Shown here: positions 2,841-19,473 of the stretch, in pieces
Layout of the letters: each line of letters opens with the position of its first letter
Position numbering within the stretch: the first letter of the stretch is position 1
Virus record (IMG/VR): IMGVR_UViG_2667528152_000001
Source: an uncultured virus (IMG/VR IMGVR_UViG_2667528152_000001)
Taxonomy: Duplodnaviria; Heunggongvirae; Uroviricota; Caudoviricetes
Strand: one strand, 5' to 3'
DNA: 20,000 nt
The notes under the pieces: model-generated
Told to the model about the DNA's origin: nothing
The model's database searches: none
Seen by the model: the letters and a program-made list of their open reading frames with translations, nothing else
Made by a program: the position numbers and the translations under genes

Positions 2841-3341
2841 TCATTCATTTTCTACATCTTTTCTAAACTGCCAAGCCCAGTCAAAGTCTTTGCGGATTTC
2901 GGATTCGGTGACGTTTCTAATATTTTTGTATTCCTCTAATTGATCTTCATATGCTTCAATTAATTTTAGTTTCTTGTTTACCTTTACTAAAATTATTTTT
3001 AAATCACTATTCGGATTTGGTATCTCAACTGTATAAAGCTTCTCTTTTTCAATTGTGATATTTGGATAAGCTAGCCAAGCTTCATAAAACTCACGTTCAT
3101 TGTGAGTTAGCCACTCTCTAACTTCATCAGATTGTCGACTCATGTGTTGATGTAAATAATCTACATCATCATCAAAGCTTTTAATCACATCAAATATCAT
3201 TTGTGGCACTTCTGGTTGAGGTTGATCGAGTTGGTCGAGTAATACTTTTACAATATGTGTTTTCACTACTGGAATGTCGCCGACACCACCTTTACCAATA
3301 GACTGTTTGTCTATCAATTTCTTCGCTTCTTCAATATTCAT
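2841..3341 (-). CDS. DUF1642-like phage protein
   Basis: PEVPQ...EAWL...EKEKLYTVEIPNPN...TESEIRKDFDWAWQF pattern, with a GAGG RBS. Confidence 0.8.
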   Translation of the reverse strand: MNIEEAKKLIDKQSIGKGGVGDIPVVKTHIVKVLLDQLDQPQPEVPQMIFDVIKSFDDDVDYLHQHMSRQSDEVREWLTHNEREFYEAWLAYPNITIEKEKLYTVEIPNPNSDLKIILVKVNKKLKLIEAYEDQLEEYKNIRNVTESEIRKDFDWAWQFRKDVENE

Positions 3342-3481
3342 TTGCTACCTCGCTTAACTTCTTCAACAATTTCAATTGCTACACCTATTGCAGCCATATA
3401 ACCAGCGTAGCTTTCTTGTCCGTAGTTATCCAGATCATTGTCAAATTCTTTATTAAGTCTTTTTAAAATTTCGTCAATCAT
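3338..3481 (-). CDS. Small hypothetical phage protein (47 aa, MIDEILKRLNKEF...)
   Basis: Translated by hand; ATGA overlap with the downstream gene. Confidence 0.65.
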   Translation of the reverse strand: MIDEILKRLNKEFDNDLDNYGQESYAGYMAAIGVAIEIVEEVKRGSK

Positions 3482-3484
3482 ACC

Positions 3485-3704
3485 CTATCCCCCATTTCCA
3501 GTCAGCTCAGCAATCCGTTTTGTCTGTCTAGCTCTATCATCACTAGCACGTTTAAGCTGCTTTTGTGTCCTGCTTAACTGTGTCCGTAATTCTGTAATTT
3601 GCGACTTGTAGTGGTCTTGCAGTGCGACGTTTAAAATAGATATAGCCATCAATGCTATACATTTTTTTAGCTTTTTTGTTAAACACTCTAAATTTCGGTA
3701 TCAT
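3485..3704 (-). pseudogene. Deletion scar: YopX-like N-terminus joined out of frame to the 3' part of a coiled-coil phage gene
   Basis: ATG at 3704 with GAGGTG RBS reads MIPKFRVFNKKAKKMY (YopX-type start). A different frame at 3485-3649 reads MAISILNVALQDHYKSQITELRTQLSRTQKQLKRAS... Confidence 0.55.
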
Positions 3705-13895: not shown

Positions 13896-14591
13896 ATGAG
13901 TAAAAAATCTTGTTTCGTAGTATCTGCTATCGGTGAGGAAAGTAGCGAAATTCGGAACCACTCAGACAGTGTTTTAAATTATATAATTAAACCTGCATTG
14001 ATCGAAAAGTATCAAGTGACCAGAGCTGACGAACTGTATCATTCAGATAGGATTGACGATAAAATATTTGATGCTTTATCCACAGCAGACTTGGTAATTG
14101 TTGATATAACAGGAAATAACCCGAATGTCTTTTTAGAACTTGGGTTTAGAAAAGCGTTGAACTTACCTACTATTTTCCTTAGACAAAAGACTGATGAAGA
14201 TATCCCTTTTGATATTAGAACTATAAATACCATTCATTACGATCTCAAAAACTCTGAAAGTAAGGTTGTGCTTGATTCTGTCCAAGAAACAATTAGACGA
14301 ATTCAAAAAACAGAAGAAAACATTGATTTTTCTATAATCCATGAACCAAACGACCAAAGTGCTTCAGTGCAAGATATTATCCAATTAAAAACTTCAATTA
14401 ACAACATCTATGATGCAATTGAAAATTTATCTGATAAAATAGAAAATAATTCTACTCAAAAAAGACCAATGACTCAGGAAGACTTAATTATGATGGCTTT
14501 TCAAGAGCCAGAAAAGTTAGAAAAGATTTTTGAGTTACAAACAAAATACCCTAATGCCTTTAACAGCCCTTCGAACGCTCTAAACGACTAA
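13896..14591 (+). CDS. Nucleoside 2-deoxyribosyltransferase-like (NDT/TIR-like fold) protein with coiled-coil tail
   Basis: SCFVVSAIG...IIKPAL...RADE...ADLVIVDITGNNPNVFLELG...IPFDI. Own promoter TGGTATAAT at 13861-13869. Confidence 0.85.
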   Translation: MSKKSCFVVSAIGEESSEIRNHSDSVLNYIIKPALIEKYQVTRADELYHSDRIDDKIFDALSTADLVIVDITGNNPNVFLELGFRKALNLPTIFLRQKTDEDIPFDIRTINTIHYDLKNSESKVVLDSVQETIRRIQKTEENIDFSIIHEPNDQSASVQDIIQLKTSINNIYDAIENLSDKIENNSTQKRPMTQEDLIMMAFQEPEKLEKIFELQTKYPNAFNSPSNALND

Positions 14592-14953: not shown

Positions 14954-15136
14954 ATGTATTTTGTGATTAGAAAATCTTCTAATAACCAGTTTTATTTTGT
15001 AATAAAAGCTGATAATCATGAAGTTGTGGCAACTAGTGAGACTTACTATTTTAAAGATTCTGCCATTCGAACAATAAAATCTATTAAAAAAGGTATCTCT
15101 ACTGACTCTAATGTCGTTGATATGACAAGCGATTAA
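14954..15136 (+). CDS. YegP/DUF1508-family protein
   Basis: FVIRKSSNNQFYFVIKADNHEVVATSETY...A...IKSIKK. TGTTATAAT at 14914-14922 and GAAAGGAGG RBS. Confidence 0.88.
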   Translation: MYFVIRKSSNNQFYFVIKADNHEVVATSETYYFKDSAIRTIKSIKKGISTDSNVVDMTSD

Positions 15137-15637: not shown

Positions 15638-15749
15638 AGTTTAACATCGTGTTTCCTTTTTGTCAACTATTTTGTGTTAAAAAAGTCAACTTTTTTGAAT
15701 TTGATTTTTTGCCATTTTTGTTGACATTTTGTAAACATGTAATTATAAT
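15638..15749. promoter_or_regulatory. Lysis/lysogeny switch: divergent promoters and three 17-bp operators
   Basis: Minus strand: TTGACA(15666-15661)-17-TAAACT(15643-15638). Plus strand: TTGACA(15721-15726)-17-TATAAT(15744-15749). GTxxxx-N5-GTCAAC sites at 15651-15667, 15674-15690 and 15720-15736 (inverted). Confidence 0.85.
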
Positions 15750-15782: not shown

Positions 15783-16532
15783 ATGGCTTCCACTATCGCA
15801 TTTCCGGCAATGGTCAAAGAACTTAGACTTAGTAAGAATTTGACTATGGAACAGTTAGCAGAAGAACTTGGAAAAACAAAGTCGACAATATCAAAATGGG
15901 AAAAAGGGACGCGTTCTCCTAAAATATATGAGATTGAAGAGATAGCAAAATTCTTCGGTGTAGCGCCTAAGAAAATGATGTTTGGAGATAATCCCACTTC
16001 GATTAATCCCCAAGTCGAACTTATCCCATCAATCCTACAAAAAATAACCACAACATCATCACAGCTTGAACACAAGCGACAACTAAACGTGCTTGATTAT
16101 GCCGAAACACAATTAGAACAACAAAACACAGTAGAAGATAGTAAGAATACAGTAGTAGAATTATTCTCTTACAACTACTACGACCATGCTGCTTCTGCTG
16201 GTACAGGGCAGTATCTAAATGATGTACAAGTAGAAACAATTGAATTGCCAGTCGATTATGACGCTGATTTTGTTATTCCAGTCTATGGTGATTCTATGGA
16301 ACCCGAATATCACTCTGGGGACTACGTATTTGTAAAATTATCTGTAGAGCTCGTAGATGGCGATATAGGCGTTTTTGAATATTACGGTGACGCTTATATC
16401 AAACAGCTACTTATACACGCAGAGGGGGCATTTCTGCATAGTCTGAACGACAAGTATAACGATATACTCATAGATAGAGATAGTGATTTCCGTATTATCG
16501 GAAAAGTTGTCGGCAGTTACAGGGAGAGTTAA
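15783..16532 (+). CDS. CI-like repressor (XRE HTH + S24 autopeptidase)
   Basis: LTMEQLAEELGKTKSTISKWEKG HTH; ASAGTG cleavage site; GDSMEP and YIKQL catalytic motifs. Confidence 0.96.
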   Translation: MASTIAFPAMVKELRLSKNLTMEQLAEELGKTKSTISKWEKGTRSPKIYEIEEIAKFFGVAPKKMMFGDNPTSINPQVELIPSILQKITTTSSQLEHKRQLNVLDYAETQLEQQNTVEDSKNTVVELFSYNYYDHAASAGTGQYLNDVQVETIELPVDYDADFVIPVYGDSMEPEYHSGDYVFVKLSVELVDGDIGVFEYYGDAYIKQLLIHAEGAFLHSLNDKYNDILIDRDSDFRIIGKVVGSYRES

Positions 16533-16533
16533 T

Positions 16534-17091
16534 ATGCTGGAAAAAGTTGAACGCTTAATCTCGGAAATTAATAGAATACACCTTGTTTATTCGCAAGATT
16601 ATTTTGAAACTGGGAAAGTTGAAAAGATTAATCTAAAACATACCTTTTCAAAAGTACCTGTCAAGGCTATCCTAGACTATCGTTTAAATCTACACGAATC
16701 CATCAATGATTATTTGATGAAAGCCGATGTCAAAGATATCCCTTACGTCTATCGTGTCAAAACATCAGAAAGCATCTTAGACAAAATTGAGCGTTTTTCC
16801 AAAAGACAAGATGGTTATCCTGTGAATTCTATTCTTAATGATATTTTTGGCGCTCGTATCATTTTATCTTCTGAGGATATTTCACAAGTGATGGAGCAAC
16901 TTGATGAATGGAAAGATAAGTTTGACTTAAAAAACTGGTATTTACGAGATAAAGATAATTACACAGGAATACACGTTTATTTCAAGAATAAGAGCAATCA
17001 CTACTATCCTTGGGAGTTGCAAATTTGGGATGAGAAAGATGTTGATCAGAACATTGAAAGCCATAAATTATTTAAACGTCATTTTGTATAA
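16534..17091 (+). CDS. RelA/SpoT synthetase-domain protein (small alarmone synthetase-like), 185 aa
   Basis: YRVKTSESILDK, NDIFGARII, YTGIHVY and WELQIW motifs. ATG lies 1 nt after the cI stop, with a GGGAG RBS. Confidence 0.87.
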   Translation: MLEKVERLISEINRIHLVYSQDYFETGKVEKINLKHTFSKVPVKAILDYRLNLHESINDYLMKADVKDIPYVYRVKTSESILDKIERFSKRQDGYPVNSILNDIFGARIILSSEDISQVMEQLDEWKDKFDLKNWYLRDKDNYTGIHVYFKNKSNHYYPWELQIWDEKDVDQNIESHKLFKRHFV

Positions 17092-17262
17092 CGTGCCATT
17101 TTACCCCAGTCGAAACGTAAATAGGAAAATTAATAACTATGTGTAATATCTGAACCACGTTAGACGACGTTAAAGACTTTAACGTTTACAGATTTATGAA
17201 AGTTTACAAATTAAAAACAATAGCGAACGAAGCTATGGTTGTCAATGAGTTTAGGAGAAAAT

Positions 17263-18156
17263 ATGGAAAATGAAGTTTTACATGCAACTCACGAGGGTAA
17301 ATTAGTCTTAGATAATACAACTATTGATGTAGCAGTTTTAAATAACGGTCAGCGAATCATCACCCAAGCTGGTGTTTTTAAAGCATTGGACAGACCTAGT
17401 AGAGGCAATACCCGTGTGATCGGAATACCTACTTTTATGGATGCAAAAAACCTTCAACCATTGATATCAAAGGATTTAAGGGGTGTGATCAACAAAATTG
17501 AATATAGGGATTTAAATGGTAGGATTCAATTAGGTTTTGATGCTAACATTTTACCGCTAGTATCAGATTTATATTTAAAAGCTAGAGAAATTGGAGCTAT
17601 CAAATCAGAAGCTCAGATGAGAACTGCACAAAAAGCGGAAATGTTAGTTCGCTCACTTGCGAAAGTTGGTGTTACTGCTTTAGTAGATGAAGCTACTGGT
17701 TATCAATATGAGAGAGAACGTTTTGAGCTTCAAAAAATATTTAAAGCATATATTAGTGAAGAATTACTAAAATGGCAAAAGATGTTTCCAGATGATTTTT
17801 ATATGGAAATTTTTAGATTGAACGGGTGGAGCTACGATGTTCAATCAATTAAAAGGCGTCCAGGTGTTGTTGGTAAATGGACAAACGAATTGATTTATAA
17901 AAGACTGCCTGATGGAGTGTTAGAAGAATTAAAAAGAAGAACTCCAAAAACAAAGAAAGGTCAATATAAAGCTAGATTTTTCCAAACTTTAACACCAGAT
18001 ATAGGACATCCTGATTTAAACGCTCAAATTTATAAAGTTCTTGGGATTATGAGAATTTCATCTAACTGGAAAGATTTCAAAGAGAAATTTAATGTTATGA
18101 CATCTAGAGAAGACGGTATAATTGAATTAGATTTAGAATTTGATGAAGACAAATAA
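17263..18156 (+). CDS. P63C-domain protein
   Basis: ALVDEATGYQYER...WQKMFPDDFYMEIFRLNGW...RPGVVGKWTNELIYKRL...QTLTPDIGHPDL. AGGAG RBS before ATG at 17263. Confidence 0.87.
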   Translation: MENEVLHATHEGKLVLDNTTIDVAVLNNGQRIITQAGVFKALDRPSRGNTRVIGIPTFMDAKNLQPLISKDLRGVINKIEYRDLNGRIQLGFDANILPLVSDLYLKAREIGAIKSEAQMRTAQKAEMLVRSLAKVGVTALVDEATGYQYERERFELQKIFKAYISEELLKWQKMFPDDFYMEIFRLNGWSYDVQSIKRRPGVVGKWTNELIYKRLPDGVLEELKRRTPKTKKGQYKARFFQTLTPDIGHPDLNAQIYKVLGIMRISSNWKDFKEKFNVMTSREDGIIELDLEFDEDK

Positions 18157-18275
18157 AAAAAGCCCCACGCTCAAATTTTGGCCAAGGAGAGCGTGAGGCA
18201 AATTCTAGTATAGTAAAAACCTGCTTTTTGGGAGGGGTTTTTACCATACCTATTTTAACAGAAAATGAGGTATAA
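18155..18275. promoter_or_regulatory. Structured integrase leader with putative antisense promoter
   Basis: Hairpins GCCCCACGCTC/GAGCGTGAGGC and GTATAGTAAAAACC/GGTTTTTACCATAC. Minus-strand TGTTAAAAT at 18260-18252. ATACCT can pair with the AGGTAT RBS. Confidence 0.6.
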
Positions 18276-18279
18276 AACA

Positions 18280-19359
18280 ATGTGGATAGAGGAGCTAGCC
18301 AACGGGAAATTTAAATATATCGAAAGATATACTGACCCTCTAACAAATAAGTACAAAAAAGTATCTGTGACACTAGATAAAAATTCTAGTCAAGCTCAGA
18401 AAAAAGCTGGTTTAATATTGCAGGAAAAGATTGAAGATAGGCTCGCTATCAGAAATCACTCAGAAATGACTTACGGAGAACTTAAAAAGGAATATCTAAA
18501 GCAATGGATACCGACCGTCAAAGACTCCACAAAACGTGGTTATTTAGTATCTGACAGTCATATAGCAACCGTGTTACCAGATGATACAATTATCAACAAG
18601 TTGACTAAACGTGATATTAGACTAATCATTGATAAACTATTAAAACACAATTCGTATCATGTTACGCATAAATGTAGAAAGAGATTGCATGCTATATTTT
18701 CTTATGCGATACAAATGGACTATATGACAAGTAATCCGACGGAGAACGTCTTAGTTCCCAAACCAAAGGATGATTACAAGCCTGAAAAGGTGCTTTATTT
18801 AACATCTAACGAGGTTTACGACCTGTGCAATAGAATGATAGACAATGACGAACAAACGCTCGCAGACATCGTTTTATTCATGTTTTTGACGGGTGTACGG
18901 TATGGAGAATTAGCTTGTCTGACTTACGACAAAATAGATTTTGAAAATAAAGAAATTCTGATTAATGCAACTTACGATTTTAACACACGAGAAATCACTA
19001 CGACCAAGACCAAAAAATCAACACGCAAAATATCTGTATCAGATAATATTTTAGATATCGTCAATAGACAGAAAAAGACAAGTTCATTCGTCTTTCCAAA
19101 TTCGAACGGTGTACCGATTTTAAACGCGTACATCAATAAGCGATTGAAAATTTATGGAGATTATCACACGCACTTATTTAGACACTCGCATATATCATTT
19201 TTAGCAGAAAAAGGGATACCGCTAAATGCGATAATGGATAGAGTTGGTCACAGCGATCCAAAAACAACATTATCTATTTACAGTCACACAACTGTAAATA
19301 TGAAAGAAATTATAAATAAACAAACTGCCCCTTTTGTGCCCCTTTTAAAATCGAAATAA
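18280..19359 (+). CDS. int: Phage tyrosine integrase
   Basis: TGVRYGE, HLFRHSH, RVGH and IYSH motifs; GAGG RBS before ATG at 18280. Confidence 0.97.
   Translation: MWIEELANGKFKYIERYTDPLTNKYKKVSVTLDKNSSQAQKKAGLILQEKIEDRLAIRNHSEMTYGELKKEYLKQWIPTVKDSTKRGYLVSDSHIATVLPDDTIINKLTKRDIRLIIDKLLKHNSYHVTHKCRKRLHAIFSYAIQMDYMTSNPTENVLVPKPKDDYKPEKVLYLTSNEVYDLCNRMIDNDEQTLADIVLFMFLTGVRYGELACLTYDKIDFENKEILINATYDFNTREITTTKTKKSTRKISVSDNILDIVNRQKKTSSFVFPNSNGVPILNAYINKRLKIYGDYHTHLFRHSHISFLAEKGIPLNAIMDRVGHSDPKTTLSIYSHTTVNMKEIINKQTAPFVPLLKSK
19326..19346 (+). repeat. Putative integrase arm-type sites near the att junction
   Basis: Direct repeat TGCCCCTTTT at 19326-19335 and 19337-19346. Confidence 0.6.
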
Positions 19360-19401: not shown

Positions 19402-19473
19402 TGTCCCCTGCCGGAATCGAACCAGCAATTACTCCTTAGGAGGGAGTTGTTATATCCATTGAACTAAGGGGAC
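19402..19473 (-). tRNA. tRNA-Arg (anticodon CCT), likely prophage attachment site
   Basis: Acceptor stem GTCCCCT/AGGGGAC, anticodon arm ACTCC-CTCCTAA-GGAGT and T-loop TTCGATT. Confidence 0.96.

Follow-up and report, generated by a model that had tools for sequence, protein, structure and literature searches.

FpRel2, a small alarmone synthetase encoded behind cI in a streptococcal prophage, appears to lack the antitoxin found with its tRNA-modifying relatives

How can a prophage carry an enzyme from a clade of tRNA toxins when nothing beside it looks like an antitoxin? In the literature searched, as far as its available text extends, every toxSAS that pyrophosphorylates tRNA is restrained by a neighbouring or fused antitoxin. 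The question is raised by fpRel2, a gene for a 185-aa small alarmone synthetase in a 20,000-nt stretch of DNA from an uncultured Caudoviricetes virus (IMG/VR IMGVR_UViG_2667528152_000001; hereafter the window, to whose whole length all positions refer). A first-pass annotation had read this frame as a four-motif RelA/SpoT synthetase beginning 1 nt after the cI stop, and had proposed that it serves as an autoinhibited or phage-triggered defence, or else as a modulator of the host stringent response. Features of the locus are collected in Table 1.

The frame and its junction are as first read. The opposite strand of 16534-17091 contains many stops, and the cI stop at 16532 is followed by a single T and then the ATG. 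An alternative GTG start that would give 202 aa and overlap cI is disfavoured, as close relatives start at the ATG, and an internal start at Met120 was also rejected (Met in 35 of 39 non-redundant genes, yet no conserved Shine-Dalgarno by eye). The four synthetase motifs fall at residues 74-76 (RxK), 103-108 (DxxGxR), 143-147 (YxxxH) and 161-163 (ExQ), with 73 residues preceding RxK and exactly 20 following ELQIW, where about 70 and about 20 had been estimated. The RelA_SpoT HMM match on which that annotation had staked its reading was found at 31.5 bits against a cut-off of 27; it is the sole Pfam domain in the protein, which has no hydrolase or regulatory domains, and PHROG 4012 matches residues 1-185 (E 8.5e-96). 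All this lies in the lysogeny arm of a prophage of the Streptococcus agalactiae type, with a P63C-domain gene, an integrase and a host tRNA-Arg lying 3' of fpRel2; eight phage records are at least 99% identical, the hosts given being S. agalactiae.

Table 1. Features of the fpRel2 locus, with positions in the 20,000-nt window.
Feature	Position	Strand	Basis or detail
Perfect sigma-70-type promoter match upstream of cI	15721..15749	+	12/12 consensus, 17-nt spacer
CI-like repressor, 249 aa	15783..16532	+	HTH_3 and Peptidase_S24 (Pfam); phrog_4
Shine-Dalgarno GGGAG of fpRel2, within the final cI codons, 7 nt 5' of the ATG	16522..16526	+	sequence
fpRel2, single-domain small alarmone synthetase, 185 aa	16534..17091	+	open frame, domain, subfamily, fold, tree
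N-terminal helical module, residues 1-73, matching the FaRel2 tRNA-recognition region	16534..16752	+	profile and structural alignment
9-bp direct repeat, copy 1, at which related prophages lost fpRel2	16565..16573	+	scar comparison
Catalytic core (R74, K76, S80, K84, R87, D103, G106, R108, Y143, H147, E161, Q163) and Ser99	16753..17028	+	alignment
9-bp direct repeat, copy 2	17127..17135	+	scar comparison
P63C-domain gene	17263..18156	+	PF10546
Hairpin element after the P63C gene	18157..18244	+	folds at -31.8 kcal/mol over 18150-18250
Phage tyrosine integrase	18280..19359	+	PF00589
Host tRNA-Arg(CCT) at prophage border	19402..19473	-	downstream of the integrase

Elsewhere in the window, positions 110-2303 hold the right end of a Tn916-like element (an HTH_16 gene, a Tn916 excisionase and an integrase), which abuts prophage early genes at about 2521 and so appears to have inserted into the prophage or next to it; the window contains no resistance gene. 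A 231-aa gene on the plus strand (13896-14591), found at 9 of 33 related viral loci, has a nucleoside deoxyribosyltransferase-like N-terminus; PADLOC matches it to an effector model that bears the label TIR (E 2.6e-18), which makes it a possible second defence gene.

On sequence grounds the protein belongs to FpRel2, a named small alarmone synthetase subfamily of predicted function (Atkinson 2011, PMC3153485; Jimmy 2020, PMC7229694). Dataset S6 of Jimmy 2020 (PMC7229694) classes the S. varani protein WP_093650247.1 (P0143, locus L001) as FpRel2 and places it in a prophage region; its locus is 94% identical to the query, and the FpRel2 rows of Dataset S5 of that paper carry identical motifs. 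In a quick IQ-TREE search of 61 proteins, from which FaRel2 is absent, the query clusters with two FpRel2-labelled rows (SH-aLRT 99; labels from Datasets S2 and S6 of PMC7229694, that of Mannheimia by species and not by accession), apart from RelP/RelQ and from PhRel2 as encoded by phages Lily and GBSV1. The available text of Kurata et al. (bioRxiv 10.1101/2021.04.30.441581) describes a supported clade of FpRel2, PhRel2 and FaRel2, reports that two tested members (FaRel2 and PhRel2) pyrophosphorylate tRNA, and states that no clear sequence signature marks tRNA-using toxSASs. Further matches in an ESM Atlas search were to RelA_SpoT clusters alone, and PADLOC, which has no model for the FpRel2 family, returned a partial and weak PDC-S33 match to the query. 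The FpRel2 name and its prophage occurrence are thus already in print; no functional study, structure or neighbourhood statement for FpRel2 was found in the literature searched, most subscription papers lying outside it. What appears to be new here is the absence of an antitoxin across FpRel2 within a clade of tRNA toxins, together with candidate residues that may explain it.

At the query locus no adjacent antitoxin-like gene was found by Pfam, PHROG, PADLOC or neighbourhood comparison. Across the subfamily, a profile built from 24 PhRel2-associated antitoxins, and so covering PAD1-Panacea only and not ATfaRel2-type antitoxins, matched at none of 224 FpRel2 loci (39 non-redundant at <90% nucleotide identity) and at 38 of 39 PhRel2-like loci, a figure owed in part to how the profile was built; the single miss ends at a contig edge. 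These control loci, treated alike, share one common downstream cluster at 32 of 39, and Panacea was recognised by Pfam in all eight PhRel2-like downstream genes tested. The neighbours of the sampled FpRel2 loci, a set that leaves aside the Neisseriaceae and Acinetobacter copies, form 56 clusters, none common across host groups. ATfaRel2-type antitoxins are excluded only through the missing shared small neighbour (ORFs of at least 55 aa) and through comparison of the 400-nt flanks, of which none is common to the Streptococcus phage, mitis-group and Pasteurellaceae contexts. Nor is there a fused pseudo-zinc-finger antitoxin domain, the toxin part of FaRel2 alone covering the 185-aa model. Because FpRel2 and PhRel2-like loci differ so sharply (0/224 versus 38/39), antitoxin absence appears to be a trait of the FpRel2 subfamily, which extends to 224 loci the initial remark that no adjacent or fused antitoxin was evident.

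Several less direct candidates were considered and set aside. PAD1-Panacea acting in trans was rejected, full-length genes being confined to three of the 301 Streptococcus genomes, of which two have the gene next to a PhRel2-like gene of their own and one has it broken, and missing from all 201 Pasteurellaceae. Of the 51 Streptococcus genomes in which fpRel2 is intact, a single one also has an undamaged full-length PAD1-Panacea gene, again beside its own PhRel2-like gene, and another has a broken copy. At L394:1261-1812, in a Streptococcus genome with fpRel2 at another position, lies a broken PAD1-Panacea gene not linked to fpRel2. A short C-terminal tail does not mark antitoxin loss, since the protein at L368, whose tail is 24 residues long, is accompanied by a Panacea antitoxin. 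The DUF1508 gene (14954-15136) is present at four of 33 viral loci and none of 110 genome loci; this 60-aa plus-strand gene occupies a variable slot upstream of cI, where other prophages have unrelated small genes. An antisense RNA was disfavoured, as three minus-strand promoter-like sites within the gene are not conserved (-35 hexamers in 1, 2 and 7 of 39); synonymous diversity along fpRel2 is flat (0.36-0.52), and an Rfam scan returned no relevant RNA family. A Fic motif lies near 33 of 223 loci, but near only 3 of 39 non-redundant ones. A nucleoid-associated protein of the PANGU type was absent among 45 neighbour representatives, and the model has no C-terminal DNA-mimic domain.

The fold points to the same clade. 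An AlphaFold2 model of the protein (pLDDT 92.9) is best matched by FaRel2 (Z 15.2, rmsd 2.7, 157 aligned, model residues 1-179 on chain residues 2-163), Foldseek agrees, and FaRel2 is also the best sequence match (E 7e-9; 27% identity). RelQ and RelP reach Z scores of at most 8.0 and align only from about residue 40; CapRel SJ46 gives Z 6.0-6.5 only. Query residues R74, K76, S80, K84, R87, D103, R108, Y143, E161 and Q163 correspond to FaRel2 R64, K66, S70, K74, R77, D90, R95, Y128, E145 and Q147, and all 12 catalytic-core residues of Table 1 are invariant in 39/39 non-redundant FpRel2 genes. The N-terminal module aligns with that of FaRel2 by structure from residue 1 and by sequence from residue 33, and in FaRel2 these helices are described as a tRNA anchor in the available text of PMC11782079. 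The 73-residue extension is therefore predicted to be a FaRel2-type tRNA-binding module and not an inhibitory domain, since its counterpart in the alignment is the set of tRNA-binding helices of FaRel2, an enzyme that is constitutively toxic; the earlier suggestion of an autoinhibitory N-terminus is not supported, and modelling of the protein alone revealed no sensor or inhibitory domain. Taken with the 1-nt gap and the Shine-Dalgarno within cI, the FaRel2 match supports the view of a toxSAS-type enzyme placed for reading together with cI.

FpRel2 thus resembles FaRel2 of the FaRel2:ATfaRel2 pair (Coprobacillus sp. D7; PDB 8PU1, 8PU3 and 8PU4) over its whole-length fold and N-terminal tRNA module, and retains the donor site, the G-loop Tyr and the equivalents of K28 and Y134, but it lacks the small upstream antitoxin and the C-terminal dimerisation helices (FaRel2 166-206). 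PhRel2 of the PhRel2:ATphRel2 pair (B. subtilis la1a, phages Lily and GBSV1) is phage-borne like FpRel2, about 30% identical over the whole protein, and shares its catalytic and WELQIW motifs, yet PhRel2-like genes are followed by PAD1-Panacea and form a separate clade. CapRel SJ46, likewise single-gene and prophage-borne, is a precedent for capsid-triggered defence by a tRNA pyrophosphokinase, but its 343-residue chain carries a fused pseudo-zinc-finger sensor that FpRel2 lacks. In the type I PANGU system GRel/Pag1B, according to the available text (bioRxiv 10.64898/2026.04.06.716658), the synthetase has no toxicity by itself and must be activated in the course of an infection; that system has two genes, a nucleoid-protein activator, a DNA-mimic domain and a pppGpp product, and nothing comparable stands beside FpRel2. 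RelP and RelQ, which are also single synthetase domains without an antitoxin, form a distant outgroup in the tree, their weaker fold match omits the N-terminal module, and their long C-terminal oligomerisation bundle is missing from FpRel2, where the ExQ Gln is followed by 22 residues, compared with 60 in one RelP/Q row. Longer FpRel2 forms are limited to three of 488 candidates (with Fic, with AAA_13 and with an unassigned tail); the fusions behind a Fic domain (P0332, 466 aa) and an AAA_13 domain (P0333, 566 aa) are probably read-through of the upstream gene.

FpRel2 differs from its toxic relatives at some of the predicted tRNA contacts. FaRel2 K28, H33 and Y134 map to K35, K40 and Y149, but R29 maps to His36 and R86 to Ser99; the counterpart of R114 differs between the two alignments, and the effect of R86 comes from a figure legend of the preprint, whose available text names K28, R29, R114 and Y134. 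At position 99 all 31 antitoxin-paired PhRel2-like proteins have Lys, and all 39 FpRel2 have Ser or Asn, Ser being nearly invariant, so that NKCLND of PhRel2 reads NSILND in FpRel2. At position 36, 28 of the 31 PhRel2-like proteins have Lys or Arg, and every one of the 39 FpRel2 genes encodes His.

The genomic slots of fpRel2 bear on its expression and on possible partners. At viral loci cI directly precedes the gene in 32 of 33 cases (31 with a 1-nt gap) and brings 10 different N-termini, yet cI is absent from all chromosomal fpRel2 contexts. Overall the upstream neighbours span 21 Pfam families, including cI, streptomycin adenylyltransferase, RmlD, Glf, TsaD, L31 and NeuB, often within 30 nt of fpRel2; the coupling to cI would therefore be a matter of borrowed expression. 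Chromosomal copies lie mostly in housekeeping operons (rmlD-rmlC, glf, tsaD and the parE-parC region) and not in evident defence islands; of the 10 neighbours scanned that were chromosomal or lay outside the slot, PADLOC matched only four. In Pasteurellaceae (L066-L079, L211-L240) the gene recurs within surface-polysaccharide operons, commonly rmlD-rmlC and also glf-glycosyltransferase, at junctions where stop and start codons overlap or nearly abut. P63C is found at 5 of 33 viral fpRel2 loci and elsewhere follows cI without fpRel2, and from this distribution it appears to be an interchangeable passenger and no fixed partner. CI and P63C, which the first-pass annotation had named for structure prediction together with the enzyme, are unlikely partners given the P63C count and the chromosomal contexts without cI.

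Transcription of cI, fpRel2 and the P63C gene likely starts from the promoter match that precedes cI, although promoter-like sites in the whole region show no excess (13 versus a shuffle mean of 12.0), and the hairpin is the likely end of the cI transcript. Its minus strand resembles the S. pyogenes sRNA Spy779816, scoring 58.4 bits where the Rfam gathering score is 67. Three raw-read RNA runs gave no reads on fpRel2 and on host rplS alike; in one RNA contig run the gene lies on a 19.5-kb contig that spans both prophage strands and may be DNA.

The distribution of fpRel2 is patchy: 60 of the 301 Streptococcus genomes searched have a match, as do 35 of the 201 from Pasteurellaceae; wide samples yielded one in 400 Gammaproteobacteria (the seed genome, with one genome unscored) and one in 401 Bacillota. 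Eleven of the 64 Streptococcus matches are partial or broken, and two are PhRel2-like. In four metagenome loci upstream of parC (L186, L187, L191 and L192; match 3001-3555) a premature stop falls after 142 codons, at or beside the G-loop tyrosine codon. The gene is under strong purifying selection, with dN/dS of 0.025-0.076 in the 7 of 15 pairs where dS was unsaturated and a value was given. Among the best 80 of 207 prophage loci sharing the cI C-terminus, close kin whose counts are not independent events, 18 carry intact fpRel2, 11 an identical deletion scar and 51 other cargo. The scar (L245, L248, L254, L257-L259, L262-L264, L275 and L279) stands behind several cI alleles, which suggests either one deletion spread by recombination or recurrence at the 9-bp repeat. 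The slot behind cI elsewhere holds AbiD, PDC-S13, PDC-S19, PDC-M24A/B, a MazF-like protein and Ltp lipoproteins of the superinfection-exclusion type, with 12 of 17 cargo representatives giving no PADLOC match. Because other prophages keep AbiD and PADLOC candidate systems in this slot, the defence role proposed in the first-pass annotation is plausible.

Our preferred reading, to which we give a probability of roughly 40%, is that FpRel2 is a damped tRNA-CCA pyrophosphokinase acting as a single-gene abortive defence. Like FaRel2 and PhRel2 it would be an ATP-dependent pyrophosphokinase capping the 3'-CCA of uncharged tRNA, having dispensed with an antitoxin. The gene would be a bare promoterless cassette that inserts behind any expressed gene; in this prophage it stands behind cI, and the lysogen would therefore make FpRel2 along with the repressor. 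Basal toxicity would be low, probably because the basic tRNA-contact surface is partly lost (Lys to Ser99, Lys/Arg to His36), and activity would matter on infection only, when a factor from the phage or a sudden rise in uncharged tRNA may act as trigger and the ensuing stop of translation would abort the superinfecting phage. The tRNA substrate, argued by analogy with the clade-mates, we hold to be moderately likely; damping, trigger and defence role together we would put only slightly ahead of even odds. Several points count against the preferred reading: chromosomal copies sit largely in housekeeping operons, published work offers no clear sequence mark of a tRNA-using toxSAS, the 185-aa model has no visible sensor or inhibitory domain and so leaves the trigger unexplained, and the invariance of His36 and near-invariance of Ser99 fit a changed substrate as well as they fit damping. 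A bolder version, which we regard as speculative, would make FpRel2 a minimal one-gene, one-domain anti-phage tRNA pyrophosphokinase whose catalytic domain itself acts as switch once a phage molecule, or the available uncharged or phage-encoded tRNA, completes it; its promoterless cassette would have spread between Streptococcus and Pasteurellaceae within core operons, and the family would document how a toxin-antitoxin pair gave way to an enzyme without an antitoxin.

The housekeeping positions invite a different use of the same chemistry, in which a domesticated tRNA pyrophosphokinase caps a small share of uncharged tRNA, blunts Rel/RelA activation and tunes the stringent response or translation, with no part in defence. 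Stable operon positions and strong purifying selection suit this proposal, and the available text of bioRxiv 10.1101/2021.04.30.441581 indicates that FaRel2 could block RSH activation by starved ribosomes; we nevertheless think it unlikely, given that patchiness, breakage and deletion on the scale seen here are typical of conflict genes and that the slot is shared with Abi genes. If FpRel2 were instead a nucleotide alarmone synthetase without toxicity, producing (pp)pGpp or (pp)pApp slowly or on a trigger in the manner of RelP/RelQ or PANGU GRel, the two altered basic positions would be accounted for; this view has models in RelP and RelQ, which require no antitoxin (PMC7229694), and in GRel with its pppGpp product. 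This too we hold to be improbable: the FaRel2-type N-terminal module is complete and conserved, the RelP/RelQ C-terminal bundle is missing, and both tested clade-mates act on tRNA. Between the two, tRNA is the likelier substrate.

There is a rather slimmer chance that FpRel2 is a potent toxSAS restrained by an unrecognised antitoxin, be it a conserved host protein, the host Rel/SpoT hydrolase, an RNA or phage CI. SAH hydrolases are able to reverse tRNA pyrophosphorylation, and long RSH hydrolase domains are encoded in all five hosts tested; cI precedes fpRel2 at nearly all viral loci, a small ribbon-helix-helix-like gene lies upstream of the FpRel2 gene at one metagenome locus (L183), and the profile used was of the PAD1-Panacea type. 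Panacea and HD_4 genes are, however, absent from 5/5 whole prophages and stand-alone HD_4 hydrolases from 5/5 hosts, no neighbour or flank is shared across the three host contexts, and the antisense sites are too poorly conserved to favour an RNA. An inactive passenger without function, for which broken copies and clean deletions might speak, is very improbable in view of the dN/dS values and the invariant catalytic residues.

FpRel2 therefore presents a member of the FaRel2/PhRel2 clade whose predicted fold and active site are retained under strong selection, with no antitoxin partner found. As such it offers a small and direct test of the proposal, made in the available text of PMC7229694, that small alarmone synthetases form a continuum of toxicity, and it bears on whether RNA pyrophosphorylation has uses other than as a toxin. 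Group B Streptococcus prophages with and without fpRel2 occur naturally, and the gene could affect the phage sensitivity of streptococci and Pasteurellaceae.
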